Source: Eledone cirrhosa (lineage: Eukaryota). From it: 64,000 nt of DNA. The stretch lies in contig OZ024740.1 of the NCBI GenBank assembly GCA_964016885.1, positions 82,088,001 to 82,152,000 on the forward strand. The letters are read 5' to 3'. Of the stretch, positions 6,776 to 59,849 are shown piece after piece (the first letter of the stretch is position 1; every line of letters begins with the position of its first letter). A model generated the notes under the pieces. It did not search any database, was not told the DNA's origin, and saw only the letters and a list, made by a program, of their open reading frames with translations. Made by a program: the position numbers and the translations under genes.

Positions 6776-6794
6776 TATATATATATATATATAC

Positions 6795-9700: not shown

Positions 9701-10112
9701 CCTCACATTCAAAGTGCCCATTTTGATGGCTCTTCTGCAGGACAAAACTGCATTCTTTATATTTGTCTCAGAGACAGCTGATCCATCATCCACTGGCCCT
9801 CTCTGTGGCTCTAAGCCAGCAGAGTCATAACGACCAGGCTGATCCTTGACAGTGTAATTAGGGGCTCTAACCCTAGTGCTGTTAGATCGACTCTCCATAT
9901 TTCTTTTCAATGGCTGACAATACCTTTCCGGCGCCACTCGAGTAAGGTAGTTATTTAACCCATAACTGGAGCCCTAACAGGTACTACCACCCCGGGCCAG
10001 GGCAGACCTGGGAGTCATGACAACTAAGGGGTAACTCCACATTCCCCACATCTCCTGAACTCCCGAACTGGAGCCTTGCCACTGGATGTAGTTTAATGTC
10101 ATACCCAGGACA
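6795..10112 (-). mobile_element. Near full-length RTE-like LINE, single APE-RT ORF with one frameshift
   Basis: 7736-9937: TLNVRT, IQEHR, YSPT, GDFNA, QIDF, SDH (APE) then RT NYRGISL, QNGFREGRST, FIDFRKAFDS; 6803-7714: QGDTLAPYLF, FADD, FLYLG; frameshift ~7735; ~170-bp 5' UTR. Confidence 0.93.
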
Positions 10113-28244: not shown

Positions 28245-28253
<9 letters not shown>

Positions 28254-28414
28254 CGTCCTTTCACGCACAAGGCGCCAAGGTACGCATGTATTGTCCAACC
28301 AAGTGCCAGTGTGGTTCAATGGCGGGTTAATAAATTAACGAGCCAGAACAAATATAAACAAGGTTTAGTAAATAATGAAAAAGTTTCAAAATAAATTTTA
28401 AAAAATTGACTTTA
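28245..28414 (-). repeat. Inverted ~170-bp segment of the 483-bp unit at the array's left end
   Basis: Reverse complement of taaagtcaatttt...ggacgtatttcata; abuts (TA)n. Confidence 0.95.
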
Positions 28415-31400
28415 CGCCTTGTGCGTGAAAGGACGTATTTCATATTACTACTACCTCCACAAACGTTGAGAACAAACCGGGTCATTCCGACTGCTGCTGA
28501 TAACAGCGGTGGCTAGTTTGACCTACCTCCTTTTGCCTCTATCTTTACTACGGCCCTTGATAAACCTGTTCTACATCACCCACTCTCATCCCAGGAACAG
28601 TCTTTGATAGCGCTAGTTTGTGATTTAAATTCAGGAATTTTATATTCTTTGAATGAAAAGAACCTTCTGACGAGAATCTCTCTTTGCAACGAGGGCCGTA
28701 TGGCCTACGTTTTATTTTTGGGATTCGAAACCGATCGGTAAAGGTAACTATAGTAGGTAAAGTCAATTTTTTAAAATTTATTTTGAAACTTTTTCATTAT
28801 TTACTAAACCTTGTTTATATTTGTTCTGGCTCGTTAATTTATTAACCCGCCATTGAACCACACTGGCACTTGGTTGGACAATACATGCGTACCTTGGCGC
28901 CTTGTGCGTGAAAGGACGTATTTCATATTACTACTACCTCCACAAACGTTGAGAACAAACCGGGTCATTCCGACTGCTGCTGATAACAGCGGTGGCTAGT
29001 TTGACCTACCTCCTTTTGCCTCTATCTTTACTACGGCCCTTGATAAACCTGTTCTACATCATCCACTCTCATCCCAGGAACAGTCTTTGATAGCGCTAGT
29101 TTGTGATTTAAATTCAGGAATTTTATATTCTTTGAATGAAAAGAACCTTCTGACGAGAATCTCTCTTTGCAACGAGGGCCGTATGGCCTACGTTTTATTT
29201 TTGGGATTCGAAACCGATCGGTAAAGGTAACTATAGTAGGTAAAGTCAATTTTTTAAAATTTATTTTGAAACTTTTTCATTATTTACTAAACCTTGTTTA
29301 TATTTGTTCTGGCTCGTTAATTTATTAACCCGCCATTGAACCACACTGGCACTTGGTTGGACAATACATGCGTACCTTGGCGCCTTGTGCGTGAAAGGAC
29401 GTATTTCATATTACTACTACCTCCACAAACGTTGAGAACAAACCGGGTCATTCCGACTGCTGCTGATAACAGCGGTGGCTAGTTTGACCTACCTCCTTTT
29501 GCCTCTATCTTTACTACGGCCCTTGATAAACCTGTTCTACATCATCCACTCTCATCCCAGGAACAGTCTTTGATAGCGCTAGTTTGTGATTTAAATTCAG
29601 GAATTTTATATTCTTTGAATGAAAAGAACCTTCTGACGAGAATCTCTCTTTGCAACGAGGGCCGTATGGCCTACGTTTTATTTTTGGGATTCGAAACCGA
29701 TCGGTAAAGGTAACTATAGTAGGTAAAGTCAATTTTTTAAAATTTATTTTGAAACTTTTTCATTATTTACTAAACCTTGTTTATATTTGTTCTGGCTCGT
29801 TAATTTATTAACCCGCCATTGAACCACACTGGCACTTGGTTGGACAATACATGCGTACCTTGGCGCCTTGTGCGTGAAAGGACGTATTTCATATTACTAC
29901 TACCTCCACAAACGTTGAGAACAAACCGGGTCATTCCGACTGCTGCTGATAACAGCGGTGGCTAGTTTGACCTACCTCCTTTTGCCTCTATCTTTACTAC
30001 GGCCCTTGATAAACCTGTTCTACATCATCCACTCTCATCCCAGGAACAGTCTTTGATAGCGCTAGTTTGTGATTTAAATTCAGGAATTTTATATTCTTTG
30101 AATGAAAAGAACCTTCTGACGAGAATCTCTCTTTGCAACGAGGGCCGTATGGCCTACGTTTTATTTTTGGGATTCGAAACCGATCGGTAAAGGTAACTAT
30201 AGTAGGTAAAGTCAATTTTTTAAAATTTATTTTGAAACTTTTTCATTATTTACTAAACCTTGTTTATATTTGTTCTGGCTCGTTAATTTATTAACCCGCC
30301 ATTGAACCACACTGGCACTTGGTTGGACAATACATGCGTACCTTGGCGCCTTGTGCGTGAAAGGACGTATTTCATATTACTACTACCTCCACAAACGTTG
30401 AGAACAAACCGGGTCATTCCGACTGCTGCTGATAACAGCGGTGGCTAGTTTGACCTACCTCCTTTTGCCTCTATCTTTACTACGGCCCTTGATAAACCTG
30501 TTCTACATCATCCACTCTCATCCCAGGAACAGTCTTTGATAGCGCTAGTTTGTGATTTAAATTCAGGAATTTTATATTCTTTGAATGAAAAGAACCTTCT
30601 GACGAGAATCTCTCTTTGCAACGAGGGCCGTATGGCCTACGTTTTATTTTTGGGATTCGAAACCGATCGGTAAAGGTAACTATAGTAGGTAAAGTCAATT
30701 TTTTAAAATTTATTTTGAAACTTTTTCATTATTTACTAAACCTTGTTTATATTTGTTCTGGCTCGTTAATTTATTAACCCGCCATTGAACCACACTGGCA
30801 CTTGGTTGGACAATACATGCGTACCTTGGCGCCTTGTGCGTGAAAGGACGTATTTCATATTACTACTACCTCCACAAACGTTGAGAACAAACCGGGTCAT
30901 TCCGACTGCTGCTGATAACAGCGGTGGCTAGTTTGACCTACCTCCTTTTGCCTCTATCTTTACTACGGCCCTTGATAAACCTGTTCTACATCATCCACTC
31001 TCATCCCAGGAACAGTCTTTGATAGCGCTAGTTTGTGATTTAAATTCAGGAATTTTATATTCTTTGAATGAAAAGAACCTTCTGACGAGAATCTCTCTTT
31101 GCAACGAGGGCCGTATGGCCTACGTTTTATTTTTGGGATTCGAAACCGATCGGTAAAGGTAACTATAGTAGGTAAAGTCAATTTTTTAAAATTTATTTTG
31201 AAACTTTTTCATTATTTACTAAACCTTGTTTATATTTGTTCTGGCTCGTTAATTTATTAACCCGCCATTGAACCACACTGGCACTTGGTTGGACAATACA
31301 TGCGTACCTTGGCGCCTTGTGCGTGAAAGGACGTATTTCATATTACTACTACCTCCACAAACGTTGAGAACAAACCGGGTCATTCCGACTGCTGCTGATA

Positions 31401-32676
31401 ACAGCGGTGGCTAGTTTGACCTACCTCCTTTTGCCTCTATCTTTACTACGGCCCTTGATAAACCTGTTCTACATCATCCACTCTCATCCCAGGAACAGTC
31501 TTTGATAGCGCTAGTTTGTGATTTAAATTCAGGAATTTTATATTCTTTGAATGAAAAGAACCTTCTGACGAGAATCTCTCTTTGCAACGAGGGCCGTATG
31601 GCCTACGTTTTATTTTTGGGATTCGAAACCGATCGGTAAAGGTAACTATAGTAGGTAAAGTCAATTTTTTAAAATTTATTTTGAAACTTTTTCATTATTT
31701 ACTAAACCTTGTTTATATTTGTTCTGGCTCGTTAATTTATTAACCCGCCATTGAACCACACTGGCACTTGGTTGGACAATACATGCGTACCTTGGCGCCT
31801 TGTGCGTGAAAGGACGTATTTCATATTACTACTACCTCCACAAACGTTGAGAACAAACCGGGTCATTCCGACTGCTGCTGATAACAGCGGTGGCTAGTTT
31901 GACCTACCTCCTTTTGCCTCTATCTTTACTACGGCCCTTGATAAACCTGTTCTACATCATCCACTCTCATCCCAGGAACAGTCTTTGATAGCGCTAGTTT
32001 GTGATTTAAATTCAGGAATTTTATATTCTTTGAATGAAAAGAACCTTCTGACGAGAATCTCTCTATGCAACGAGGGCCGTATGGCCTACGTTTTATTTTT
32101 GGGATTCGAAACCGATCGGTAAAGGTAACTATAGTAGGTAAAGTCAATTTTTTAAAATTTATTTTGAAACTTTTTCATTATTTACTAAACCTTGTTTATA
32201 TTTGTTCTGGCTCGTTAATTTATTAACCCGCCATTGAACCACACTGGCACTTGGTTGGACAATACATGCGTACCTTGGCGCCTTGTGCGTGAAAGGACGT
32301 ATTTCATATTACTACTACCTCCACAAACGTTGAGAACAAACCGGGTCATTCCGACTGCTGCTGATAACAGCGGTGGCTAGTTTGACCTACCTCCTTTTGC
32401 CTCTATCTTTACTACGGCCCTTGATAAACCTGTTCTACATCATCCACTCTCATCCCAGGAACAGTCTTTGATAGCGCTAGTTTGTGATTTAAATTCAGGA
32501 ATTTTATATTCTTTGAATGAAAAGAACCTTCTGACGAGAATCTCTCTTTGCAACGAGGGCCGTATGGCCTACGTTTTATTTTTGGGATTCGAAACCGATC
32601 GGTAAAGGTAACTATAGTAGGTAAAGTCAATTTTTTAAAATTTATTTTGAAACTTTTTCATTATTTACTAAACCTT

Positions 32677-32683
<7 letters not shown>
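28415..32683 (+). repeat. 483-bp tandem array (~8.8 near-identical units), each with a type I hammerhead; retrozyme-like
   Basis: Exact 483-bp period (ORF track repeats at 28548, 29031 ... 32412); only two substitutions noticed (~28580, ~32065). Confidence 0.98.
28662..28745 (+). ncRNA. Type I hammerhead ribozyme, first of 9 copies (+483 bp each)
   Basis: Stem I acctt/aaggt; CTGACGA 28667-28673; stem II gaatct/ggattc capping two small hairpins; GAAA 28727-28730; palindromic stem III accgatcggt; GUA triplet, predicted cuts after 28740, 29223, 29706, 30189, 30672, 31155, 31638, 32121, 32604. Confidence 0.92.
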
Positions 32684-32711
<28 letters not shown>

Positions 32712-37532: not shown

Positions 37533-40428
37533 CTAGCTGAATGACCCGGCGTTGCCCGGGTTACTGCTGTTTTATTCAGATTAGGAAACAATAAATATGA
37601 AGAATTTTTTTCCTCATATTCACTTTACATAAAATATGTCAAAGTTGTAATGATAATAGAATTTAGAAATGAAAATCTCTTCAACTCAGTTTTACCATCT
37701 TCTTTTCTCAACCAAGAAACCCACAAAAATCACAAAAAGGAACACAAAAAAAAAATATATATTAAGAATAGCAAACAGAAATCTTAATAAATTTTCTGTC
37801 GAAAACAAAAAACAGCCAAAGAACAGTTTTTTTTTAACGGATGATAAAGTACTGTAAAGTTGTTGGAAGAGCCTGATAGAATGAGATGAGCAACAGCCAG
37901 AAGCACAGCAGCAGCAGTATTTCGAACTGTCCACCATTTAGGATCGTAATATTCAGTTTCGATATCAGATTTATGAGAGAGGTATAACGTGAATTATTGA
38001 GTTTTATCGATTTTTTTGCGTAATTGGGGATCAATTTTAAATATATAAATTCTGCATGACCTAATTGAAGCTATTTCGAATATTGATGAGTAATTTTCCT
38101 TTGAAGGAGGTGTTTTTTTTTATCGTATAGAAAAGGAACATGCACACACACTCGCTTTTATAGATAATGATATATATATATATCTGTATGTGAGTGTGTG
38201 TATGTGTTTGTATATATATAAACTCTTTTTGTGTTAAATCATCTCAGTGTTAATGCACGTTACAGGACCTCTTTGTAGATTATGTTGCGGGTCATACCGT
38301 TGGGTGTGTATGAAAAAAGGGAGTCCTTACTCCCAACTCGCGAGCAGGCAACATAAAGTTGGCCATGAGCAAAGCAGGGTTCTTTGAGATGAATGCCCGC
38401 CACGGACAAAGTTTGACCCTGAGATTTGTTTATGGTGATCGCGAAGCAGGGCCTTACGGGAAACTGATGTCGCCTAAAACCTATCGGGATGTCCGTGGTC
38501 GAAGGTTGGATGCTTAGCCTTGGGATCATGACCGTCTCACCTTTACCACAACCAGTTAAGATGGTTGCTTTAATGAGATGGTTCGTCATTGATTTGACTA
38601 CCATTCGAGTGCCGTTGCACTGTTTTGGGAGCGCATGTTACGCATAAGCATAATCGGACTGCCGACCTTGAGCTTCAGGATGAGTGGTGGGAGACCTGGG
38701 GGGTCAAGGCTATTCAAAAACTCTACTGGGTAATCCGTCGCCTCCTGTGGATCGGTGACGCGGTGCGTTGTTTGTGTCCAACCGAGCACGGCGGGCTGTT
38801 TGATGTTCTGCGGCACGGGAGGCGGCGATGGATACAGCGTTCTGGGACCTTCGGATGGCTGTCTGTATCTCGGTCTGTGATGCTCTGGCAGCTGCCTTGG
38901 AGGCGGAGTCCTTGGACCTTCGGATGACTGTCTCCTGGTCGGTTTCTGCGGCACGGGAGGCCGCGGTTCAAGCAGCGTTCTTTGACCGTCTGGTGGCTGT
39001 TTGCTGTTTAGTTTCGGAGGCCCTTGCAGCAGCAGTAGTTGCAGCATTCCTAGCCCTACGAAGAGCTCTTTGGCTGTCAATCTCTGCTGCCCTAGAGGCG
39101 GCTGCTGCAACTGCATTCCGACAATTACGAATGGCACGATTCGAAGCGGTAACCGTAGATAGAGAAGCGCTGGGTTGGGCTGTGCTAGGGGTATTTAAGT
39201 TTGAAAGCGAAGTAACAGGGGTTTGTGGCCAAAAATGCAGTCCGGCATCCGTAGACTGCTCATTCAATCGCCTCTTTTTTGAAACAACAGACGATGTTTT
39301 ACTACGGCTAAGGATACTCTTTCTTTTCAGTGGCATGGTTGCAATAGTACAGTAAACAGTAAAGGGGAAGCAGGTTTAGAGCAAAGGCAAAAAAGCGAAG
39401 GTGATAAGCAGTATTTTGGGGAAGGTAAAAAAAAGTGACAAATTGTTACAATTTTAAGCAAGAAAAAAGTAAACAAAAAACGTACTGGGAATGGCAAAGT
39501 CCGAAAGCGAGGTCACAAAATGTAATGCGGTGAGAGTGAAGCACACGTCTACACAGTAGCCTAACCAAGTAGCAAGTGTAGCGTTTGAAAACCAAAGCTT
39601 TGCAAAGCGTCCATGAAATTTTTTTTTTGATTCAAGGCGAAAATTTGTCCACTTCTCGACCGAAAGAAAGCAAAAACTGACTCAACTGGTGCCAAGTGGT
39701 CAGAACTGGCAGGAACTGGTTTGTGTCTATAACTGTGTCTAACTGGTTTGTAACTATAGCAACAGTGGTTCCCTCGGTCTCAAAGACCAAAGTAAGTGGG
39801 GAGGGGAAGGTAATGTTACTGTAACACCAACACCGTTTCTCTCTATATTCCTCGTTCAATAAAGAAGGGGGAGGGGGAAGGTAATGTTACTATAGCAACA
39901 GTGGTTCGCTCACTGACCAAAGTGGAGAGGGGAATGTAATATATCTGTGACCCCAAAACTTCTCTCTCTATCTTCCTCTCTCTCCCTCTAAAGAAGGGGG
40001 AAGGGGAAGGTAATGTTACTATGAGACCTGTTATTCCTGTCTCTCTATATACGAAGTAGAGATTCGACCTCGATCTTCACTCTCGACCGAATTTCGAAAT
40101 GATTCGAGTACGGCAACAAAATTTAGACTCTTTTCTACCCATATTAGCAAAAAAAACGGGTCAAAAAACTCAAAAGGAAACATTTTTCACGCGTGCATAA
40201 AATGCAACCTCATCTCCCGATTTCACCCCAAAATAGACAAAAATGTGGATCGCGGGTCCCTGGGTGGACCTATCAAAAAACAAAGTAGCCTAAGCAATGT
40301 AAAGGGTCATGAGGAATGAGGTATGCAAATTTGAGCGTCATCGGGCGAGCGGTGTAGACGCCAACCTCGAATAAGGTAGCATCCACACACACACAGACAA
40401 ACACACATCCTCTGTTTTATATATATAG
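37533..40428 (-). mobile_element. Internally deleted Helitron retaining RepHel N-terminus and PIF1-like helicase C-terminus
   Basis: 5' tctatatatataaaacagaggat at 40428; 3' cccgggcaacgccggg + CTAG at 37533; 38260-38750 [64 protein letters not shown]; possible second 5' end near 38170. Confidence 0.9.
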
Positions 40429-43400
40429 ATACTCGGATTTATTTCCTAGAGTGGTTAAATTATTTGTGACTAATCCCGGTATTTAAAAAAAAAAGACCGC
40501 GATGATATTGCCTTTTGTTGAACTCCTCTTGTAGAGTTTTCTTTCGGAATGTTTTTGACTGTTGTTTCATGTAAACAAACATTTGTCTCATTCTGACGTC
40601 ACCAGCCCTGTTTCCCACATGTGCGTTTATTTTAATAATTACGCATGATGTTAAACTAACCTGCTTTTAAATTCCCTTTTTGGCGCATTACCAGTGAGAC
40701 CTTGGTTACCATGTTGAGCTCTGCTAATGAACAAAATCCATGAGTTACCATCCCCAGTGAAAGTTTTCGTGAATTAGTCTTTTCTAGTCTATGCAGAACT
40801 TTTGAAATTGTCCCAAATTGAAGGTTGAGTACTGTAGACTTTGTTTTATCATGAGTTAAGGCTCTATTGATTTTTCCCTGGATTTCTCTAAATTCTGTTG
40901 GATAAATCTATATCCTGATTACTTTTGAATTGAGTCTGAATTATTTTTCCCATGTCTTATGTTAACTATTTTCCCATTTTGAAGCTATAGTCACATATAT
41001 GTTATGGAAGACTGTTAGCTTCTCGCTACAACAATTTCTATACTTTTCATTTATATATACTCGGTTTTATTTCCTATAGTGGTTCAATCATTTGTGACTA
41101 ATCCCGGTATTTAAAAAATAAATAAAGCGATGATATGGCCTTTTGCTGAACTCCTCTTGTAGAGTTTTCTTTCGGAATGTTTTTGACTGTTGTTTCATGT
41201 AAACAAACATTTGTCTCATTCTGAGGTCACCAGCCCTGTTTTCCACATGTGCTTTTATTTTAATAATTACGCATGATCTTAAACTAGCCTGCTTTTAAAT
41301 TCCCTTTTTGGCATATTACCAGTGAGACCTTGCTTACCATGTTGAGCTCTGCTGATGAACAAAATCCAAACGTGACCATCCCCACTGAATGTTTTTCTGA
41401 AATAGTCTTTTCTAGACTATACAGAGCATTTGAAATTGTCCCAAATTGAAGGTTGAGTACTTTAGATTTGTTTTATCATGAGTTAAGTCTCTATTGATTT
41501 TTCCCTGGATTTCTCTATATTCTAATGGATAAATCTATATCCTGATTACTTTTGAATTGAGTCTGACTTATTTTTCCCATATCTTATGTTAACTATTTTC
41601 CCATTTTGACGCTATAGACACATATATGTTATGGAAGACTGTTAGCTTCTCGCTACAACAATTTCTATACTTTTCATTCATATATATATACTCCGATTTA
41701 TATCCTAGAGTGCTTAAATTATTTGTGACTAATCCCGGTATTTAAAAAAAAAAAAGACCGCGATGATATTGCCTTTTGCTGAACACCTCTTGTAGAGTTT
41801 TCTTTCGGAATATTTTTGACTGTCGTTTCATGTAAACAAACATTTGTCTCATTCTGACATCACCAGCCGTGTTTTCCAAAAGTGCGTTTATTTTAATAAT
41901 TACGCATGATGTTAAACTAGCCTGCTTTTAAATTCCCTTTTGGCATATTACCAGTGAGACCTTGGTTACCATGTTGAGCTCTGCTGATCAACGAAATCCA
42001 AACGTGACCATCCCCACCGAAAGTTTTCGTGAAATAGTCTTTTCAATACTAGACCAAGCATTTGAAGTTGTCCCAAATTGAAGGTTGAGTACTTTAGATT
42101 TGTTTTATCATGAGTTAAGGCTCTATTGATTTTTCCCTGGATTTCTCTAAATTCTGTTGGATAAATCTATATCCTGATTCCTTTTGAATTGAGTCTGAAT
42201 TATTTTTCCCATATCTTATGTTAACTATTTTCCCATTTTGACGCTATAGTCACATATATGTTATGGAAGACTGTTACCTTCTCGCTACAACAATTTCTAT
42301 ACTTTTCATTTATATATATATACTCGGATTTATTTCCTAGAGTGGTTAAATTATTTGTGACAAAACCCGGTATTTGAAGAAAAAAAAGACCGTGATGATA
42401 TTGCCTTTTGCTGAACTCCTCTTGTAGAGTTTTCTTTCGGAATGTTTTTGACTGTTGTTTCATGTAAACAAACATTTGTCTCATTCTGGCGTCACCAGCC
42501 CTGTTTTCCACATGTGCGTTTATTTTAATAATTACGCATGATGTTAAACTAGCCTGCATTTAAATTCCCTTTTGGCATATTACCAGTGAGACTTCGGTTA
42601 CCATGTTGAGCTCTGCTGATCAACGAAATCCAAACGTGACCATCCCCACCGAAAGTTTTCGTGAAATAGTATTTTCAATACTAGACCGAGCATTTCAAGT
42701 TGTCCCAAATTGAAGGTTGAGTACTTTAGATTTGTTTTATCATGAGTTAAGGCTCTATTGAATTTTCCCTGGATTTCTCTAATTCTGTTGGATGAATCTA
42801 TATCCTGATTCCTTTTGAATTGAGTCTGAATTATTTTTCCCATATCTTATGTTAACTATTTTCCCATTTTGGCGCTATAGTCAAATATATGTTATGGAAG
42901 ACTGTTAGCTTCTCGCAACAACAATTTCTATACTTTTCATTTATATATATATACGCAGATTTATTTCCTAGAGAACTTAAATTATTTGTGTCTAATCCCG
43001 GTATTTTTTTTTAAAAAGACCGCGATGATATTGCCTTTTGTTGAACTCCTCTTGTAGAGTTTTCTTTCGGAATGTTTTTGACTGTTGTTTCATGTAAACA
43101 AACATTTGTCTCATTCTGACGTCACGAGCCCTGTTTTCCACATGTGCGTTTATATTAATAATTACGCATGATCTTAAACTAGCCTGCTTTTAAATTCCCT
43201 TTTTGGCATATTACCAGTGAGACCTTGGTTAACATGTTGAGCTCTGCTGATGAACGAAATCCAAACGTGACCATCCCCACTTAAAGTTTTCGTGAAATAG
43301 TCTTTTCTAGACTATACAGAGCATTTGAAATTGTCCCAAATTGAAGGTTAAGTACTTTAGACTTTGTTTTATCATGAGTTAAGGCTCTATTGATTTTTCC

Positions 43401-46400
43401 CTGGATTTCTCTAAATTCTGTTGGATAAATCTATATCCTGATTACTTTTGAATTGAGTCTGAATTATTTTTCCCATATCGTATGTTAACTATTTTCCCAT
43501 TTTGACGCTATAGTCACATATATGTTATGGGAGACTGTTACCTTCTCGATACAACAATTTCTATACTTTTCATTTATATATATATACTCGGATTTATTTC
43601 CTAGAGTGCTTAAATTATTTGTGACAAAACCCGGTATTTGAAGAAAAAAAAGACCGTGATGATATTGCCTTTTGCTGAACTCCTCTTGTAGAGTTTTCTT
43701 TCGGAATGTTTTTGACTGTTGTTTCATGTAAACAAACATTTGTCTCATTCTGGCGTCACCAGCCCTGTTTTCCATATGTGCGTTTATTTTAATAATTACG
43801 CATGATGTTAAACTAGCCTGCATTTAAATTCCCTTTTGGCATATTACCAGTGAGACTTCGGTTACCATGTTGAGCTCTGCTGATCAACGAAATCCAAACG
43901 TGACCATCCCCACCGAAAGTTTTCGTGAAATAGTCTTTTCAATACTAGACCGAGCATTTCAAGTTGTCCCAAATTGAAGGTTGAGTACTTTAGATTTGTT
44001 TTATCATGAGTTAAGGCTCTATTGATTTTCCCTGGATTTCTCTAATTCTGTTGGATGAATCTATATCCTGATTCCTTTTGAATTGAGTCTGAATTATTTT
44101 TCCCATATCTTATGTTAACTATTTTCCCATTTTGGCGCTATAGTCAAATATATGTTATGGAAGACTGTTAGCTTCTCGCAACAACAATTTCTATACTTTT
44201 CATTTATATATATATACGCAGATTTATTTCCTAGAGAACTTAAATTATTTGTTTCTAATCCCGGTATTTTTTTTTAAAAAGACCGCGATGATATTGCCTT
44301 TTGTTGAACTCCTCTTGTAGAGTTTTCTTTCGGAATGTTTTTGACTGTTGTTTCATGTAAACAAACATTTGTCTCATTCTGACGTCACGAGCCCTGTTTT
44401 CCACATGTGCGTTTATATTAATAATTACGCATGATCTTAAACTAGCCTGCTTTTAAATTCCCTTTTTGGCATATTACCAGTGAGACCTTGGTTAACATGT
44501 TGAGCTCTGCTGATGAACGAAATCCAAACGTGACCATCCCCACTTAAAGTTTTCGTGAAATAGTCTTTTCTAGACTATACAGAGCATTTGAAATTGTCCC
44601 AAATTGAAGGTTAAGTACTTTAGACTTTGTTTTATCATGAGTTAAGGCTCTATTGATTTTTCCCTGGATTTCTCTAAATTCTGTTGGATAAATCTATATC
44701 CTGATTACTTTTGAATTGAGTCTGAATTATTTTTCCCATATCGTATGTTAACTATTTTCCCATTTTGACGCTATAGTCACATATATGTTATGGAAGACTG
44801 TTACCTTCTCGCTACAACAATTTCTATACTTTTCATTTATATATATATACTCGGATTTATTTCCTAGAGTGCTTAAATTATTTGTGACAAAACCCGGTAT
44901 TTGAAGAAAAAAAAGACCGTGATGATATTGCCTTTTGCTGAACTCCTCTTGTAGAGTTTTCTTTCGGAATGTTTTTGACTGTTGTTTCATGTAAACAAAC
45001 ATTTGTCTCATTCTGGCGTCACCAGCCCTGTTTTCCATATGTGCGTTTATTTTAATAATTACGCATGATGTTAAACTAGCCTGCATTTAAATTCCCTTTT
45101 GGCATATTACCAGTGAGACTTCGGTTACCATGTTGAGCTCTGCTGATCAACGAAATCCAAACGTGACCATCCCCACCGAAAGTTTTCGTGAAATAGTCTT
45201 TTCAATACTAGACCGAGCATTTCAAGTTGTCCCAAATTGAAGGTTGAGTACTTTAGATTTGTTTTATCATGAGTTAAGGCTCTATTGATTTTCCCTGGAT
45301 TTCTCTAATTCTGTTGGATGAATCTATATCCTGATTCCTTTTGAATTGAGTCTGAATTATTTTTCCCATATCTTATGTTAACTATTTTCCCATTTTGGCG
45401 CTATAGTCAAATATATGTTATGGAAGACTGTTAGCTTCTCGCAACAACAATTTCTATACTTTTCATTTATATATATATACGCAGATTTATTTCCTAGAGA
45501 ACTTAAATTATTTGTGTCTAATCCCGGTATTTTTTTTTAAAAAGACCGCGATGATATTGCCTTTTGTTGAACTCCTCTTGTAGAGTTTTCTTTCGGAATG
45601 TTTTTGACTGTTGTTTCATGTAAACAAACATTTGTCTCATTCTGACGTCACGAGCCCTGTTTTCCACATGTGCGTTTATATTAATAATTACGCATGATCT
45701 TAAACTAGCCTGCTTTTAAATTCCCTTTTTGGCATATTACCAGTGAGACCTTGGTTAACATGTTGAGCTCTGCTGATGAACGAAATCCAAACGTGACCAT
45801 CCCCACTTAAAGTTTTCGTGAAATAGTCTTTTCTAGACTATACAGAGCATTTGAAATTGTCCCAAATTGAAGGTTAAGTACTTTAGACTTTGTTTTATCA
45901 TGAGTTAAGGCTCTATTGATTTTTCCCTGGATTTCTCTAAATTCTGTTGGATAAATCTATATCCTGATTACTTTTGAATTGAGTCTGAATTATTTTTCCC
46001 ATATCGTATGTTAACTCTTTTCCCATTTTGACGCTATAGTCACATATATGTTATGGAAGACTGTTACCTTCTCGCTACAACAATTTCTATACTTTTCATT
46101 TATATATATATACTCGGATTTATTTCCTAGAGTGCTTAAATTATTTGTGACAAAACCCGGTATTTGAAGAAAAAAAAGACCGTGATGATATTGCCTTTTG
46201 CTGAACACCTCTTGTAGAGTTTTCTTTCGGAATGTTTTTGACTGTTGTTTCATGTAAACAAACATTTGTCTCATTCTGACGTCACCTACCCTATTTTTCC
46301 ACATGTGCGTTTATTTTTATAATCACGCATGATGTTAAACTAGCCTGCTTTTAAATTCTAATTTTGGCATATTACCAGTGAGACCTTGGCTTCCATGTTG

Positions 46401-49400
46401 AGCTCTGCTGATGAACAAAATCCATGAGTTACCATCCCCACTGAACGTTTTCGTGAAATAATCTTTTCAGGACTATAAAGAGCATTTGGAATTGTCTCAA
46501 ATTGAATTTGAGTACTTTAGACTTTGTTTTACCATGTGTTAAGGCTCTATTGATTTTTCCCTGGATTTCTCTAAATTCTGTTGCATAAATCTATATCCTG
46601 ATTACTTTTGAATTGAGTCTGAATTATTTTTCCCATATCTTATGTTAACTATTTTCCCATTTTGACGCTATAGTCACATATATGTTATGGAAGACTGAAA
46701 GCTTGTCGCTACAACAATTTCTATACTTTTCATTTATATATACTCGGATTTATTTCCTAGAGTGGTTAAATTATTTGTGACTAATCCCGGTATTTTTTTA
46801 AAAAAAGACCGCGATGATATTGCCTTTTGCTGGACTCCTCTTGTAGAGTTTTCTTTCGGAATGTTTTTGACTGTTGTTTCATGTAAACAAACATTTGTCT
46901 CATTCTGACGTCACCAGCCCTGTTTTCCACATGTGCGTTTATTTTAATGATTACGCAAGATGTTAAACTAGCATGCTTTTAAATTCCCTTTTTGGCATAT
47001 TACCAGTGAGATTTTGGTTACCATGTTGAGCTCTGCTGTTGAACGAAATCCTAACGTGACCAACTCCACTGAAAGTTTTCTGAAATAGTATTTTCAATAC
47101 TATACCGAGCGTTTGAAGTTATCCCAAATTGAAGGTTGAGTACTTTAGACTTTGGTTTATCATGAGTTAAGGCTCTATTGATTTTCCCTGCATTTCTCTA
47201 AATTCTGTTGGATAAATCTATATCCTGATTCCTTTTGAATTGAGTCCGAATTATTTTTCCCATAGCTTATGTTAACTATTTTCTCATTTTGACGCTATAG
47301 TCGCATATATGTTATGGAAGACTTTTAGCTTCTCGCTACAACAATTTCTATACTTTTCATTTATATTTATATATACGCGGATTTATATCCTAGAGAGCTT
47401 AAATTATTTGTGACTAATCCCGGTATTTAAAAAAAAAAGACCGTGATGATATTGCCTTTTGTTGAACTCCTCTTGTAGAGTTTTCTTTCGGAATGTTTTT
47501 GACTGTTTCATGTAAACAAACATTTGTCTTATTCTGACATCACCAGCGCTATTTTTCCACATGTGCGTTTATTTTAATAATCACGCATGATGTTAAACTA
47601 GCCTGTTTTAAATTCCATTTTTGGCATATTACCAGTGAGACCTTGGTGTTACCATGTTGAGCTCTGCTGATGAACAAAATCCAAACGTGACCATTCCCAC
47701 TGAAACTTTTCGTGAAATCGTCTTTTCAAGACTATAACCGAGCATTTGAAGTTGTCCCAAATTGAAGGTTGAGTACTTTAGATTTGTTTTATCATGAGTT
47801 AAGGCTCTATTGATTTTTCCCTGGATTTCTCTATATTGTGTTGGATAAATCTATATCCTGATTACTTTTGAATTGAGTCTGAATTATTTTTCCCATACCT
47901 TATGTTAACTATTTTCCCATTTTGACGCTATAGTCACATATATGTTATGGAAGACTGTTATCTTGTCGCTACAACAATTTCTATACTTTTCATTTATATA
48001 TATATATATACTCGGATTTATTTCCTAGAGTGCTTAAATTATTTGTGACTAATCCCGGTATTTAGAAAAAAAAAAAGACCGCGATGATATTGCTTTTTGC
48101 TGAACTCATCTTGTAGAGTTTTCTTTCGGAATGTTTTTGACTGTCGTTTCATGTAAACAAACATTTGTCTCATTCTGACGTCACCAGCCCTGTTTTCCAC
48201 ATGTGCGTTTATTTTAATAATTACGCATGATGTTAAACTAGCCTGCTTTTAAATTCCCTTTTTGGCATATTACCAGTGAGACCCTGGTTACCATGTTGAG
48301 CTCTGCTGTTGAACGAAATCCTAACGTGACCATGCCCACTGAAAGTTTTCTGAAATAGTCTTTTCAATACTATACCGAGCATTTGAAGTTGTCCCAAATT
48401 GAAGGTTGAGTACTTTAGATTTGTTTTATCATGAGTTAAGGCTCTATTGATTTTCCCTGGATTTCTCTAAATTCTGTTGGATAAATCTATATCCTGATTA
48501 CTTTTGAATTGAGTCTGAATTATTTTTCCCATATCGTATGTTAACTCTTTTCCCATTTTGACGCTATAGTCACATATATGTTATGGAAGACTGTTACCTT
48601 CTCGCTACAACAATTTCTATACTTTTCATTTATATATATATACTCGGATTTATTTCCTAGAGTGCTTAAATTATCTGTGACAAAACCCGGTATTTGAAGA
48701 AAAAAAAGACCGTGATGATATTGCCTTTTGCTGAACACCTCTTGTAGAGTTTTCTTTCGGAATGTTTTTGACTGTTGTTTCATGTAAACAAACATTTGTC
48801 TCATTCTGACGTCACCTACCCTATTTTTCCACATGTGCGTTTATTTTTATAATCACGCATGATGTTAAACTAGCCTGCTTTTAAATTCTAATTTTGGCAT
48901 ATTACCAGTGAGACCTTGGCTTCCATGTTGAGCTCTGCTGATGAACAAAATCCATGAGTTACCATCCCCACTGAACGTTTTCGTGAAATAATCTTTTCAG
49001 GACTATAAAGAGCATTTGGAATTGTCTCAAATTGAATTTGAGTACTTTAGACTTTGTTTTACCATGTGTTAAGGCTCTATTGATTTTTCCCTGGATTTCT
49101 CTAAATTCTGTTGCATAAATCTATATCCTGATTACTTTTGAATTGAGTCTGAATTATTTTTCCCATATCTTATGTTAACTATTTTCCCATTTTGACGCTA
49201 TAGTCACATATATGTTATGGAAGACTGTTATCTTGTCGCTACAACAATTTCTATACTTTTCATTTATATATATATATACGCGGATTTATATACTAGAGAG
49301 CTTAAATTATTTGTGACTAATCCCGGTATTTAAAAAAAAGAAGACAGTGATGATATTGCCTTTTGTTGAACTCCTCTTGTAGAGTTTTCTTTCTGAATGT

Positions 49401-50100
49401 TTTTGACTGTTGTTTCATGTAAACAAACATTTGCCTTATTCTGACGTCACCAGCGCTATTTTTCCACATGTGCGTTTATTTTAATAATCACGCATGATGT
49501 TAAACTAGCCTGTTTTAAATTCCATTTTTGGCATATTACCAGTGAGACCTTGGTGTTACCATGTTGAGCTCTGCTGATGAACAAAATCCAAACGTGACCA
49601 TTCCCACTGAAACTTTTCCTGAAATCGTCTTTTCAAGACTATAACCGAGTATTTGAATTTGTCCCAAATTGAAGGTTGAGTACTTTAGATTTGTTTTATC
49701 ATGAGTTAAGGCTCTATTGATTTTTCCCTGGATTTCTCTTAATTCTGTTGGATAAATCTATATCCTGATTACTTTTGAATTGAGTCTGAATTATTTTTCC
49801 CATATCTTATGTTAACTATTTTCCCATTTTGACGCTATAGTCACATATATGTTATGGAAGACTGTTAGCTTCTCGCTACAACAATTTCTATACTTTTCAT
49901 TTCTATATATATACTCGGATTTATTTCCTAGAATGCTTAAATTATTTGTGACTAATCCCGGTATTTAAAAAAAAAAGGCCACGATGATATTGCTTTTTGC
50001 TGAACTCCTCTTGTAGAGTTTTCTTTCGGAATGTTTTTGACTGTCGTTTCATTTGTCGGTTCATTAGTTTCTCACTACAACAATTTCTATACTTTTCATT
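40429..50100 (+). repeat. ~632-bp tandem array (15 units + deleted 16th), each with a hammerhead motif; higher-order structure
   Basis: Unit starts ~40431, 41059, 41690, 42322, 42953, 43586, 44216, 44849, 45479, 46112, 46742, 47375, 48010, 48642, 49278, 49913. Confidence 0.97.
43241..43322 (+). ncRNA. Type I hammerhead ribozyme (632-bp family, intact version; same at 44504-44585 and 45767-45848)
   Basis: gctctg-CTGATGA-acgaaa...tttcgt-GAAA-tagtct(tttct)agacta-TA-cagagc; AUA triplet, predicted cut after 43316. Confidence 0.9.
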
Positions 50101-50131
<31 letters not shown>

Positions 50132-50411
50132 GTAATATATATATATATATGTACATATATATATGTATATATATGTTTATATATATGTATATATATGTAT
50201 ATATATATATATGCTATATATATAAATGAAAAGTATAGAAATTGTTGTAGTGAGAAACTAATGAACCGACAAATGAAACGACAGTCAAAAACATTCCGAA
50301 AGAAAACTCTACAAGAGGAGTTCAGCAAAAAGCAATATCATCGCGGTCTTTTTTTTTATAATACCGGGATTAGTCACAAATAATTTAAGCATTCTAGGAA
50401 ATAAATCCGAG

Positions 50412-50420
<9 letters not shown>
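49905..50420. repeat. Palindrome at array end: deleted ~190-bp unit, ~120-bp (TA)-rich centre, inverted copy
   Basis: 50222-50413 is the reverse complement of 49912-50102. Confidence 0.95.
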
Positions 50421-50442
<22 letters not shown>

Positions 50443-50444
<2 letters not shown>

Positions 50445-51074
50445 GTATATGTGTGTGTCCGCATGTATCTGTGTGTTTCTAAATATATTGTTCATAACTT
50501 CCTCTGGTCGAGTAACCTTTGAAGTGTGGTGACTGCTGGAAAGCTGCCATTACTCATACTTCTCGCCTCCTTCACCACCTCTTCTACGTCTCCGATATAA
50601 ATACCCCCTCCGCCTCCGTGGTATTTTCTTCGGGGTTATAAGAGGCTTAGCTCTGTTTCTCGACCGTTGTATCACGTGACTATCTCCCCCTCCGCCTTTT
50701 GGGATTCTTTCTCACGTCATATAGACGCGCTTTTGAGGCTAGTAAAATGAGGTATCCTCTTGATAAGTCGGCAGACCTCGCAAGAGCTCTATATCTTTAT
50801 GATGTATTGTTTTTGTCTATGCCACGAAACTATATAGTCGAGGAATCTAGGAACAGTTTAGGTATGATACATTTTATTACTAATTATATCTAAATGTTTC
50901 TTCTCTCTTCATAATGTATTTTCGCTCTGATACTGGCTCAGTCTAATTCAACCGAAATGGTCTGTCCCAGTCATTCATAGAGCAACATCGGTAAGGTTGG
51001 CACCATTAACTCACGGTTGAATGTGGATGCATTCATGTATATGTGTGTGTCCGCATGTATCTGTGTGTTTCTAA

Positions 51075-51081
<7 letters not shown>
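50443..51081 (+). repeat. 592-bp unit with ~45-bp terminal direct repeat and internal hammerhead; retrozyme/pLTR-like
   Basis: atgtgtgtgtccgcatgtatctgtgtgtttctaaatatatt at ~50449 and ~51041. Confidence 0.8.
50755..50844 (+). ncRNA. Type I hammerhead ribozyme, U3-A8 core variant
   Basis: tcctc-TTGATAA-gtcggcagac...gtctatgccac-GAAA-ctatatag-TC-gagga; palindromic stem III; GUC triplet, predicted cut after 50839. Confidence 0.82.
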
Positions 51082-51379: not shown

Positions 51380-51708
51380 GGAGTGGTGGACAGCACGGGC
51401 GCTAGTGAGGGCGGTGTAGTCGATGGTAACCTCTGCGCATGAAATGGCTGACTGAAGGGATTGAGACTCAAAGTCACCATCTCGGCTGCAAACGCGGCGG
51501 GTCCTGAGGAGTTGGGAGTAGGAATAAAGTGTTTAGTGTGTGTGGGGTGGGAGGAGGTGAAGTCGAGGTAGGAGTGGGAGTCAGTGGGTTTGAAGAAGGC
51601 GGAGGTGACGAGGGAGGGGTCGGAGGTGTCAATGGCGACGGAGATGTTTAAGAATTGTTCGTGGGTGGAGAAGATAGAGGTGGTGAAGTGGAGGGTGGGG
51701 TAGTTATT
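51380..51708 (-). pseudogene. Penelope-like element reverse transcriptase fragment (palm end/thumb)
   Basis: Manual translation PTLHFTTS...FLNISV...TSAFFKPTDSHSYLDFTSSHPTHTKHFIP / YSQLLRTRRVCSRDGDF matches the PLE KPT..H.YL..SSHP...IPYSQ..R..R.CS signature. Confidence 0.85.
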
Positions 51709-51711
51709 TAG

Positions 51712-52048
51712 GTTACAGCCGTACTAAGAGTTAGAAATGAAATTTCGTTTCATTTATTCCGTTTATCGTCTTCGGTACGCCGGCCGATTAACTCACTCGA
51801 TATGAAAATTAGTCTGCTCAGCCGTTAATATGCATAATGAAAGTATATACTTTCAGACGTTCAATCATCTGGCAGGAAGGTATACGTTGCTGACGATAGC
51901 TAATAAGCTGGAAACTAGTACAGCGTTCCTTTGTCAGGGTTGAACAAATGAGCAACGATGGTTGCTAGACACTGTGTGTCTTAATTCTGGATGTTTGTTT
52001 ACAAACACACCGAGCATTTTAATAAATGTTCGGTGAATCCATACGTAC

Positions 52049-52079
<31 letters not shown>

Positions 52080-52645
52080 CATGTATGTATATATATATAT
52101 ACATACTACTGTACGCCTGTATACATATATGTATGTACGTATACATACTTATATTTAAGTAACAGCCGTACTAAGAGTGAGAAATGAAATTTCGTTTCAT
52201 TTTTTTCCGTTTATCATTTTCGGTACCCCGGCCGATTAACTCACTCGATATGCAAATTAGGCTGCTCAGCCGTTAATATGCATAAGGAAAGTATATACTT
52301 TCAGACGTTCAATTATCTGGCAGGAAGGTATACGTTGCTGACGATAGCTAATAAGCTGGAAACTAGTACAGCGTTCCTTTGTCAGGATTGAACAAATGAG
52401 CAACGATTGTTGCTAGACACTGTACGGCTTTATTCGGGATGTTTGTTTACAAACACACCGAGCATTATAATAAATGTTCGGTGAATCCATACGTACATAT
52501 ATATATGTGTGCATGTATGTATATATATATATACATACTACTGTACGTCTGTATACATATATGTATGTACGTATACTTACTTATATTTAAGTTACAGCCC
52601 TACTAGGAGTGAGAAATGAAATTTCGTTTCATTTTTTCGGTTTAT
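51712..52645 (+). repeat. ~440-bp tandem repeat (2.1 units), each with a minimal hammerhead
   Basis: Unit starts ~51713, 52160, 52592; HHRs at 51884-51926 and 52332-52374. Confidence 0.93.
51884..51926 (+). ncRNA. Minimal type I hammerhead with palindromic stem III (second copy 52332-52374)
   Basis: acgttg-CTGACGA-tagc(taataa)gctg-GAAA-ctag-TA-cagcgt. Confidence 0.88.
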
Positions 52646-56395: not shown

Positions 56396-59300
56396 TTACA
56401 GACACATACTCAGAGAAGGCCCATTCATTCGGGCCATACTTGCTTCTCTCACCCATCTTTCAACAAAATGCTGGGAAGAGAGCACTTCCCTCTCTACCCT
56501 GATTTTCCTTTTCAAATGAAATTTGAAAAAGTTAATCAGGGCATCACCGAAGAGGTAAGTGCTCGTCTTCAGCCCTTTCAAACGTGTCCACCATACTATC
56601 TCTTTCGCCATGGCCACCAGACAGATAAAAACTGCCTGCCCTTCCAGGCTAAAGGAAGGGGGTGGGGCAATCCTCACGATGGACTCAGCTGATAGCTGGA
56701 TCCGTCCTACACGTGACAGCAGGTGTTCGACATAAACCCACAAGTCAGCAATGCTCGGACACTGGAGGAGTGCGTGCAGGACGGTTTCGTCGCCCTGCGC
56801 GCATCTCGGACATGCCCGGCTGACGGCACCTCCATGCCTGTAGAGTTTATCCCGAACTGGCAAAGCTCCTCGGTAGCCCTGCCAGGCCAGGGATTTCTGG
56901 AAGTTGTCCATAGGCCCCGGCCCGAAAGTCCTTCCGAAGAGATTGGCTAGTTGATTTTCGTCGACGCCTAGAGTTTCTCCAAGTACGTCGTCGCTCTTAC
57001 CCTCCACTAATCCCCTATAGAACGCCAAGGTGGAGTTTCCACCGATCACATTGCCCGATTGGTCGAGGGCTGTGAGCGCCTGAAGACATTCCAGTCTCCA
57101 AGCGCTCCCTCTCGGTCTTCGCTTGACCCAGGACTGCAGCTCCGTCAAGGAGACGAGCTGGGGAAAAACGTGTCTTGCAAACGGCGACCACACCTGATCA
57201 CCGTCGAGGAAGAGGTGGAGATGTCGTAGCCTGAGCGCGTGTCTGCGCATCATCAGCCACGGCATGCCCAGCCCTCCACGTAGCGGGTGTTGACAGCAGA
57301 TGGACCGCCTGACCATCGGAGCGCGTCCCTTCCACAAGAAGCGAAAGAGCAAACGCTCCAGCGCAGTCAGGCGGGGCTTAGGACAAGGTACGACGGTCAG
57401 GCGGTAGTAGATGACGGATACGATGTACGCATTCGCCACCTCCGCTCGACCTTTTAGGGATAGCTTCCACTCGGCCCATTTCTGGGTGAGAGAAGCCACC
57501 CTGCTCGTCACCTCGTCCCAGTTTTTGTCCGTCTGGAGGTCTGGACCGAACCAGACCCCTAGCAATTTAACCGGTCCGTCCGTCCAGCGCCCGACGACGC
57601 TGTTGGACGGCATGGACCTGCCTCTCCAGGTGCCGAGCTGCAGGCCCACTGACTTTTCCTGGTTGATCATTGCTCCTGTCACCGCTTCGTATTCTCTTAG
57701 TGTAGTGCCGATCGCCTCGATGTGTTTGGCGTTCGACACCACTACGGTGACATCGTCGGCATATGCTGACACGGATCTTGCGCATCCTAGTTCGCGCGGG
57801 ACCCCCCTCAACGTCTCCAGTTTGTGCAGTAATGGCTCGAGAGTCAATACGTACAATAGGGTCGAGAGGGGACATCCTTGGCGGACCGAGCGCATGATGT
57901 TGAACGGTTCCGAAAGGTGACCGTTCACTCTCACTACAGAGCAGATGTCGCTGTGCATGGCAGCGATCCAGCCTCTGAAGACGGGCCCAAAGCCAGCCGC
58001 CCTCAGAACTGCCGCTAGGTAACGATGGTCGACCCTATCGAAGGCTTTCGACTGATCTAAATTGATCAAAGACCCACCCGTGCCAGGTTCCCTAGCTACC
58101 CTCTCTACGATGTATCGCATGAGGTGGAGGTTGTCGTGGATGGATCTGTCGGGAATGGCGCATGTCTGTGCCTCTCCCACCAGACCACCAACGACAAGCG
58201 CCAACCTCTTTGCTAGCACCTTGGCCAAAATCTTGAACTCTGTGTTTAGCAGAGTTATGGGCCTAAAATTATCTATGTTATCCCCCTTGTTCGGATCCTT
58301 TCTCAGCAGCGCCACCGCTCCTCGGCTCACAGAGCTGAGAATTCTCCCGTTCTGTTGCCAGTTGCAGTAGACGTTCGCCAAGAGGCCTCCGAACAAGTTT
58401 GGCATTTGTACGTAAAGTTCATAGGGCAGGCCATCCAAACCAGGCGATTTGCCCCTTGTGCAACTAGTCATTGCATCCCGTACTTCAGCGGTTGTTATCG
58501 GCTTTTCGCAACACTCCGCCTCAGTGGCCGAAAGCCGCGGCAGTCCGTCGAGGTAGACACTAAAGTCCATCCCTCGATCCGGCCCGCCACTGCCCCCGAA
58601 CAGTTGAGCGAAGTGTCGCTGAAAAGCTTCACACATTTGCCCGGGATCGAGTAGCATGCGCCCGTCGTGGTCCACCAAAGACCGGATCGTGGCTTTGTTG
58701 CCACGACGCGCCTCCGCCACTCGGGCCCATTCAACGGCTTTCGTCCCCTCGTGTCTGAGAGCACGCACCCTAGCTCTGACAACGCAGCCTTCGTGCTTTG
58801 CATTGAAGAATTGGTCAAGGGCCAATTTCGCCGCAAGTACGTCGGTCGCGATGCCTTTGCTAAGCGCCTCATCTAATTTTCTAACTAATTCTCCCTCTGC
58901 TCTATTTTTCTCTATTGCTAAAGTCTTACTAAACCTAATGGACTTTATTCTAATTGCTCTTTTCAGAGCAAACCACCACTTGTTGTTGACGATGGCCCCC
59001 GTCAACGCCCGCTTAACTAGTTCGCTAATCCGGTCTCTGTAGGCCTTGCGCGCTGGTAAGGACGCGTTTAGCTTCCAGTAGACGGGTCCTCGTCTATGAA
59101 GCCTATCTAAGTCAAGCACACAGATCACGAATTTGTGGTCCGTGTAGCTGACTATCTTGAATTGTGGACAGCCTATGCTAGACCTATCTATTTCCCTACA
59201 AAATACTCTATCTAGATATGATCTGGATGACCCTATGCGATTTGTCCAAGTCCACATTGGTACATTCGGGAAATTCATTCGGTACCTGTCAGACAGTTCA

Positions 59301-59815
59301 AAACGTCTGAGCAGGTTGGTGAGACTCTTGCACCCTCCTTCCCTATCCACTAATCCCACACAATCCCAGCGTGCATCTAAGATCCCGTTCCAGTCGCCCA
59401 CTAACACTAAAGAGCGGGACGTTCCAAGAAAGGTCTCCAGACGCCGGAAGAAATCAGGCCGCCCTGCTCCTGTCGGGGCATAGACGGCCACTAACCTGAA
59501 AGCTTGCCCGTCTCCGCTGGTCACGTCCAGCACCACCAACTTACCTTCTGGGTCCAGGAAGATGGCCCGTATGGCAAGATCCAAACCTCTCCGAAAAAGC
59601 ACAGCAACTCCTCCCCCCGATCCCGGACGGCTGGGAGATGCGTACACATCGTAGCCGCCGAAGATCGGTGCGAAAGCCTGTGCTTCGGAGATTCTGGTCT
59701 CGCTGATGGCCACTACATCTATGTTTAGTGACCTGAGGTCGTTGAGCAGGTGGCCCTGCTTCCATGACGACCCCAAGCCACGCGCATTTATGCTGCCTAT
59801 TCTGAGTGAGGTCAT
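56396..59815 (-). CDS. LINE ORF2: APE endonuclease + reverse transcriptase + Cys-rich domain, 1139 aa, uninterrupted
   Basis: SINARGL, ISET, VYAP, GDWN, YLDR, TDH; KSPGLDG, LDQSKAFDRV, RQGCPLS, YADD; CPRC...H...C. Confidence 0.96.
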   Translation of the reverse strand: MTSLRIGSINARGLGSSWKQGHLLNDLRSLNIDVVAISETRISEAQAFAPIFGGYDVYASPSRPGSGGGVAVLFRRGLDLAIRAIFLDPEGKLVVLDVTSGDGQAFRLVAVYAPTGAGRPDFFRRLETFLGTSRSLVLVGDWNGILDARWDCVGLVDREGGCKSLTNLLRRFELSDRYRMNFPNVPMWTWTNRIGSSRSYLDRVFCREIDRSSIGCPQFKIVSYTDHKFVICVLDLDRLHRRGPVYWKLNASLPARKAYRDRISELVKRALTGAIVNNKWWFALKRAIRIKSIRFSKTLAIEKNRAEGELVRKLDEALSKGIATDVLAAKLALDQFFNAKHEGCVVRARVRALRHEGTKAVEWARVAEARRGNKATIRSLVDHDGRMLLDPGQMCEAFQRHFAQLFGGSGGPDRGMDFSVYLDGLPRLSATEAECCEKPITTAEVRDAMTSCTRGKSPGLDGLPYELYVQMPNLFGGLLANVYCNWQQNGRILSSVSRGAVALLRKDPNKGDNIDNFRPITLLNTEFKILAKVLAKRLALVVGGLVGEAQTCAIPDRSIHDNLHLMRYIVERVAREPGTGGSLINLDQSKAFDRVDHRYLAAVLRAAGFGPVFRGWIAAMHSDICSVVRVNGHLSEPFNIMRSVRQGCPLSTLLYVLTLEPLLHKLETLRGVPRELGCARSVSAYADDVTVVVSNAKHIEAIGTTLREYEAVTGAMINQEKSVGLQLGTWRGRSMPSNSVVGRWTDGPVKLLGVWFGPDLQTDKNWDEVTSRVASLTQKWAEWKLSLKGRAEVANAYIVSVIYYRLTVVPCPKPRLTALERLLFRFLWKGRAPMVRRSICCQHPLRGGLGMPWLMMRRHALRLRHLHLFLDGDQVWSPFARHVFPQLVSLTELQSWVKRRPRGSAWRLECLQALTALDQSGNVIGGNSTLAFYRGLVEGKSDDVLGETLGVDENQLANLFGRTFGPGPMDNFQKSLAWQGYRGALPVRDKLYRHGGAVSRACPRCAQGDETVLHALLQCPSIADLWVYVEHLLSRVGRIQLSAESIVRIAPPPSFSLEGQAVFICLVAMAKEIVWWTRLKGLKTSTYLFGDALINFFKFHLKRKIRVEREVLSSQHFVERWVREASMARMNGPSLSMCL

Positions 59816-59849
59816 GTTGAAAAGGAGTGGAAAAGATGGGAAAGACCAC

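Follow-up and report, generated by a model that had tools for sequence, protein, structure and literature searches.

A decaying tandem array of a dispersed hammerhead family, likely a PLE-mobilised retrozyme, in Eledone cirrhosa

We analysed a window of 64,000 nucleotides of the Eledone cirrhosa genome (contig OZ024740.1, positions 82,088,001 to 82,152,000 of the forward strand), which contains a tandem array of a hammerhead-bearing unit of about 632 bp. This array is very probably a locally expanded and decaying copy of a dispersed non-coding hammerhead family, which we read as a likely non-LTR retrozyme riding endonuclease-bearing PLEs. On the features that can be tested from its sequence, the family would belong with the metazoan non-LTR retrozymes, a class that is already known. 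A preliminary description had proposed a retrozyme- or PLE-derived origin for the array, and a dispersed family with PLE-type insertion anatomy and ribozyme-shaped conservation upholds that proposal.

The array, described beforehand as about 15 ribozyme-bearing units of about 632 bp, proved to be real: positions 40429–50109 hold 15 full head-to-tail units of 628–636 bp, each bearing one predicted type I hammerhead on the + strand, and a 16th unit with an internal deletion. Three runs of one sample, in the form of contigs, also cover the array and do not bear on its expression. The full units (40429–49910, + strand) start at positions 40429, 41057, 41688, 42320, 42951, 43584, 44214, 44847, 45477, 46110, 46740, 47373, 48008, 48640 and 49276, with a short (TA)n tract at every junction. 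The 16th unit (49911–50109, + strand) has unit positions 1–143 fused to the fixed 3' end (590–635), followed by (TA)n, and lacks unit positions about 144–589. An inverted copy of this deleted unit (50215–50426, - strand; 212 nt, 97% complementary) faces it tail to tail across a (TA)n tract, and a tail-to-tail pair resembling this right end was also found at locus L165; fold-back and second priming are both possible origins of the inverted copy. Just to the right, a 50-bp direct repeat (50440–50490 and 51030–51080) surrounds an unrelated stretch of 540 bp. The unit is non-coding (its longest ATG frame has 54 codons) and has a GC content of 33%, and the predicted circular fold of a natural copy is 60% paired with the hammerhead still formed. 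The absence of likeness to the 483-bp unit of the same window was also claimed correctly (blastn with word size 7, best E only 3.8–5.0), and comparison of the 632-bp unit with the 448-bp repeat of the window gave no similarity beyond chance words.

We found the core (CUGANGA, GAAA, UH) and all three stems, with stem I as the open one, intact in 3 out of the 15 units, namely unit 5 (43241–43322, + strand, predicted cut after 43316), unit 7 (44504–44585, + strand, predicted cut after 44579) and unit 9 (45767–45848, + strand, predicted cut after 45842). The hammerhead of unit 5 has a stem I of 6 bp, a stem II of 6 bp with a 28-nt loop, a stem III of 6–7 bp and an AUA triplet, and the minimum-energy fold of 43241–43322 is the hammerhead itself (-24.9 kcal/mol, z -2.45, 4 of 200 shuffles equally good). 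The 5' end proposed earlier at 43317 is thus correct, following directly from the predicted cut after 43316. The other 12 hammerheads, all on the + strand and spanning 40718–49651, are damaged (starts at 40718, 41346, 41978, 42610, 43874, 45137, 46402, 47030, 47661, 48300, 48932 and 49568). Five out of the 15 units kept the core with 1–4 broken pairs, while in seven the core was mutated (G5A, A6U, G8C, A15.1U, U16.1G, H17G), so that the earlier wording of one motif "or a point variant" per unit held exactly for units 5, 7 and 9 and understated the damage in the rest. Core changes besides G8C are counted as damaging to cleavage, and the ribozyme of unit 1 carries 12 changes within 82 nt. G8C itself is reported to abolish cleavage (PMC11167929). 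Intact ribozymes alternate with dead ones along the array, and cleavage at two intact sites would yield a piece of 1,263 nt. The ribozyme had no match in Rfam at the gathering score or at E<=5, probably because of its 28-nt loop II. A bacterial promoter scan gave nothing above shuffles, with a model that is irrelevant here.

The DNA search of the 3.0-Gb genome of the same species returned 2,980 first-look candidates on many contigs, 39 of which were scored. An exact pattern of the ribozyme had 1,811 genomic matches and one of loop II had 1,604, both of them lower bounds on the ribozyme-bearing units; the reversed controls had 0 matches each, and therefore the ribozyme pattern is not due to chance. 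Among 75 loci sampled in order of position (the first places on contig C1), a fixed 3' base followed by (TA)n was present in 73, while full units were absent from 40 loci, single in 27 and numbered 2–7 in 8. Across all fetched loci, a TA run lay at most 22 nt from the 5' end in 105 out of 125 independent insertions. The 35 full copies measured 610–650 bp and were 79.4–99.7% identical, a range that indicates several subfamilies, some of them young. Many arrays of the family keep the ribozyme in every unit, and the young arrays are near homogeneous (14 arrays, each with 0–13 variable alleles), which is what copying a single template over and over should produce. An inverted piece of the family was also found at locus L047. 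At L019 (2455–2830) and L020 (2415–2808), the 5' end of the element is joined through microhomology to one arm of an inverted-repeat insertion from another hammerhead-bearing family.

For the conservation of the ribozyme we collected 76 rows anchored on loop II and kept 67, after dropping 8 that were truncated inside the motif and one with a damaged 5' half. Core position N7 is U in 37 copies, C in 15 and G in 15. At any one of the remaining 11 core positions, no more than 2 of the 67 rows differ, and all 11 are kept in 57. Pair 10.2–11.2 is C-G in 29 copies, U-A in 30, U-G in 4 and gapped in 4, that is, paired in all 63 ungapped rows. Pair 10.1–11.1, adjacent to the core, is U-U in 39 copies, A-U in 23 (the state of the intact units of the window), A-C in 4 and C-U in one, and never the G-C that is usual for hammerheads; U-U at this place is a documented natural hammerhead variant (PMC3088659). 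In the 56 distinct rows, 92.6% of the cells pair, and the covariation score exceeded 500 out of 500 shuffles and all slid controls, with nearly all of the signal in one pair. This signal probably amounts, as read from the alignment, to one stem II pair changed in one or two events. The covariation is modest evidence, because it comes almost entirely from one pair and the rows are related, and stems I and III are near invariant and therefore uninformative on it. Taken as a whole, the family ribozyme seems to have the conservation of a selected hammerhead, with the core kept, N7 free and one stem II pair covarying.

PLE insertions are described as having a fixed 3' end, ragged 5' ends, partial tandems, inverted pieces and microsatellite targets, and Hydra elements as inserting in (TA)n and carrying canonical hammerheads (PMC8557442); the pLTR hammerheads of PLEs are likewise described (PMC4209133). 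The family resembles the pLTRs of EN+ PLEs of the Hydra and Neptune clades, as presented in these two sources, in its fixed 3' end, 5' truncation, partial tandems, inverted pieces, (TA)n target and type I hammerhead, and differs from EN+ PLEs in having no ORF in the unit. We thus infer the likely mobilisation of the family by PLEs from its insertion anatomy and not from homology, since the pLTRs of the sampled PLEs share no detectable sequence with the unit.

The 5' ends of the insertions bear on the template that was copied. They fell upstream of the predicted cleavage site in 33 out of 73 mapped cases and many insertions exceeded one unit, which points to a circle or an uncleaved multimer as the template; from a linear monomer cleaved at both ends, only the 267 nt downstream of the cut could be copied. 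The insertion data do not distinguish between circles and uncleaved linear multimers as templates. In a purified PLE system, the main substrate was uncleaved RNA, with internal initiation and AT-rich targets (PMC11167929). The ribozyme plus 15 nt received 31 out of 104 5' ends, about twice its uniform share (p 2e-4, ignoring the length gradient and TA microhomology), and this enrichment fits stalling at the structure as well as run-off at a cleaved end. TA microhomology sets many 5' junctions. None of the 73 ends lay within 5 nt of the cleavage site, but this apparent avoidance became less convincing with the youngest subfamily, in which 5 out of 32 ends lie 2–12 nt downstream of the site.

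In the cycle that we propose, tandem copies would be transcribed from the + strand, and the ribozyme would cut the multimers into monomers of 630 nt that may be ligated into circles. A PLE endonuclease would nick a (TA)n microsatellite, and the reverse transcriptase would start at the short UA tract of the fixed 3' end and copy backwards, often crossing the cleavage site and running for more than one unit. The products would be 5'-truncated monomers, 1.x-mers and homogeneous 2–7-mers.

The ribozyme might instead be a passenger kept by descent in a family that moves as uncleaved linear RNA, which we regard as unlikely. Reverse transcription does often pass the cleavage site, insertion by the purified PLE was reported to be unaffected by ribozyme mutants (PMC11167929), and the ribozyme has only modestly fewer polymorphic columns (10 of 82) than the rest of the unit (111 of 553), in an alignment where the loop was fixed by the search pattern. 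Against this stands the nature of the differences: subfamilies up to 21% apart differ at N7, in the loops and at a compensated stem pair, and not at the other core bases.

We also searched for a PLE with a pLTR matching the unit, a relation that the preliminary description had envisaged, and found none among the families compared, one Neptune-type and two Hydra-type; no detectable sequence is shared between the 632-bp unit and their pLTRs. The TA-ending Neptune-type family, for which the genome gave 7,622 candidates, bears a minimal hammerhead and the motifs DKG and CX4CxxC; the two TA-ending Hydra-type families, with 13,203 and 11,498 pattern matches, bear the motifs DKT and CxCX5C. The clade names were given from motifs alone (PMC8557442). 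No PLE ORF adjoined the unit at the 75 position-ordered loci, and the RT and GIY-YIG ORF that lies between the pLTRs of an autonomous PLE is absent for the unit. Direct 5' junctions to one Hydra-type family occurred in 3 out of 125 insertions, and none to the other, equally abundant family. These three junctions are a weak lead only, because two of them defined the library and a target-site deletion beside a pre-existing copy explains them. Partnership with a Hydra-type family on the resemblance of 3' ends was rejected, the resemblance being not above shuffles (135–320 of 500).

A near-complete Hydra-type PLE with hammerhead-bearing pLTRs lies about 8–14 kb to the left of the window (loci L198 and L199). 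Its family has many 100%-identical copies and 758-aa open frames that recur, and thus looks recently active; the Hydra-type pLTR near the window shares U-U at 10.1–11.1 and a long stem III with the family of the array.

It is very unlikely, in our assessment, that the unit is merely the pLTR (3' UTR) of an autonomous PLE outside our sample, with the copies as its truncated insertions and no independent retrozyme. The unit does have the same anatomy as the PLE ends of this genome (hammerhead, fixed 3' end, (TA)n), a short TA tract likewise marks the tandem junction of the Neptune-type pLTR, and our reading covered only about 150 of the more than 1,800 loci. Yet tandem junctions return to position 1 of the same 630-bp unit, the 35 full copies are closed at their narrow range of lengths, none of the 75 position-ordered loci reaches a PLE ORF and the longest ATG frame of the unit has 54 codons.

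In a tree with 31 dispersed relatives, the 15 units of the window's array group as a single clade (FastTree support 0.971), with founder alleles in 14–15 of the 15 units and in 0–1 of the 31 dispersed copies. The locus would have begun as a single insertion and later expanded and diverged as DNA, first through point mutation and then through unequal exchange or slippage, which would have produced block duplications of 1,263 and 2,530 bp. Assembly from separate insertions, with different members of the family entering one another's TA tails, is extremely improbable and largely refuted by the shared founder alleles, even though a TA tract, the target of the family, lies at every junction and the units differ by up to 10%, for the 15 units are one clade whose founder alleles are near absent from the dispersed copies, and the junction tracts are short, as in 1.x-mers.

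Mean identity among the 9 distinct unit lineages is 93.4%, and it is 96.0–98.9% in five other arrays. Recent duplications inside the array are overall 99.4–100% identical. They comprise a higher-order repeat at 42217–46206 (+ strand), in which a 1,263-bp dimer of one dead and one intact ribozyme is repeated three times (99.5–100% identity), and a block at 48451–49227 (+ strand) that duplicates 45921–46697 with a shift of 2,530 bp (identical over runs of 224 and 552 nt). The suggestion that the array is older and turning into satellite DNA therefore stood locally, given the single clade and the lower identity among its lineages, and did not stand with regard to the recent duplications and to a size of 15 units, which is below satellite scale. 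The array is the longest that we found, the longest others having 7 full units, and it holds 7 out of the 42 junction matches of its subfamily. Its loop alleles had 18 genomic matches, 14 of them in the window; the other 4 are unrelated copies only 81–94% identical, and therefore no daughters of the array were seen. The array appears to be a dead end.

In this array, unlike in the dispersed copies, the ribozyme carries mutations at about twice the density of the remainder of the unit. This excess was first spotted by eye and then tested: we counted 37 distinct substitutions in the 82-nt ribozyme and 106 in the 504 nt outside it, against 27 and 159 private changes, respectively, in dispersed copies (odds ratio 2.06, Fisher p 0.011). 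It persists after merging clustered changes (ratio 1.94, p 0.002) and at G/C and A/T sites alike, the densest 82-nt mutation window begins inside the ribozyme, and the changes per site are 0.41 in core and stems, 0.57 in loop II and 0.21 outside. Elsewhere, the excess was 1.64-fold in ten other multi-unit loci (p 0.013) and 1.64-fold in 20 1.x-mers (p 0.021). A replication with a design fixed in advance, on 14 young arrays found by junction (13 of them new to the test), gave a ratio in the same direction that was not significant (1.48-fold, 13 vs 56 alleles, p 0.14; control ratio 1.22) and had little power. We tentatively raise the possibility, doubtful as it still is, that, in transcribable tandem arrays, the ribozyme of a retrozyme decays more quickly than the remainder of its unit, such arrays being actively silenced source loci and not satellites in neutral drift; the cause, just as tentative, may be selection against self-cleavage or circle release, or mutagenesis associated with co-transcriptional cleavage. 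Simple selection on a host transcript is opposed by the latest duplication, which tripled an intact unit, and by nine intact ribozyme copies of the 483-bp unit, which lie 8 kb away on the same strand; by eye, the window and 50 kb on each side showed only transposon frames and no evident host exons. No title or abstract opening that we found dealt with faster ribozyme decay in arrays, which may still be reported elsewhere. The ribozyme-focused decay is the one lead that deserves a genome-wide test.

Several other repeats and elements were detected around the array. The 483-bp hammerhead array (window 28249–32684) starts with an inverted piece of itself of 141–165 nt and is bounded at both ends by (TA)n, an inverted 5' structure of PLE type, and a diverged copy of its unit lies at about 6326–6736. 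A third hammerhead family consists of a 448-bp repeat in 2.1 copies (51705–52645, + strand) with a short palindromic stem III and cores at 51890 and 52338; it abuts, in head-to-head orientation, part of a Neptune-type PLE reverse transcriptase (51436–51704, - strand), for which the Pfam search gave no match. With a simple descriptor, loci L001–L207 yielded over a dozen further families of type I hammerheads next to (TA)n tracts, many of these families lacking G-C at 10.1–11.1, and the genome is unusually rich in PLE-type ribozymes. A 568-bp tandem repeat of about 2.1 copies (window 1–700 and 443 bases leftward), without an intact hammerhead core, is faintly similar to unit positions 93–170 (E 0.005–0.09) and is possibly a distant relative. 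Several LINE-type RT frames, among them a 1,152-aa frame at 56396–59854 (- strand) and related broken copies, lie in window 3929–9973 and 56396–61451, and we also noted a 110-bp minisatellite (16753–17509) and a helicase-like fragment (38260–38637).

Animal retrozymes are described as tandem type I hammerhead repeats that are expressed as circles (PMC7229834). The family resembles the metazoan non-LTR retrozymes of coral, mussel and axolotl in that source, being made of non-coding tandem repeats with one type I hammerhead per unit, low GC, forms from monomers to multimers and co-occurring PLEs. Its unit, known here from DNA, is longer than the invertebrate circles of 170–400 nt given there, and its 28-nt loop II and stable 6-bp stem III set it apart from the known animal retrozymes. 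The expectation that the unit would exceed known animal retrozymes in general did not hold: a vertebrate survey reports families of 51–972 bp with up to 300 units, linked to PLE pLTRs (bioRxiv 10.64898/2026.07.22.740005), and 632 bp and 15 units fall inside both ranges. Neither the unit length nor a PLE origin is therefore new, as the preprint reports both. It also gives repeat-library matches for 24 out of 57 Xenopus families, whereas for our family no sequence link to a parent pLTR was found among the PLE families compared, and in its Xenopus cleavage test only one out of 9 predicted elements cleaved. Two consecutive complete ribozymes, which the preprint takes as its criterion for "active", are absent from the window's array and present in other arrays of the family. 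The cave-cricket satellite pDo500 (PMC2808323) is similar in its tandem hammerhead unit of several hundred bases, homogenised by turnover at the DNA level, but the arrays of our family are short and dispersed and carry retrotransposition footprints. The hammerhead region of pDo500 is reported to be neither more nor less conserved than the rest, whereas that of the window's array is about twice as mutated as the remainder of its unit.

The family offers a clean test case, of invertebrate type, for how animal retrozymes move: it combines the PLE footprint in large numbers with intact Hydra- and Neptune-type PLEs in the same genome and with young, near-identical arrays for assays of cleavage, circles and mobilisation. 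Should the twofold excess of ribozyme mutations also be found in other old arrays, it would speak for selection by hosts against tandem self-cleaving loci, or for the mutation of such loci by cells.
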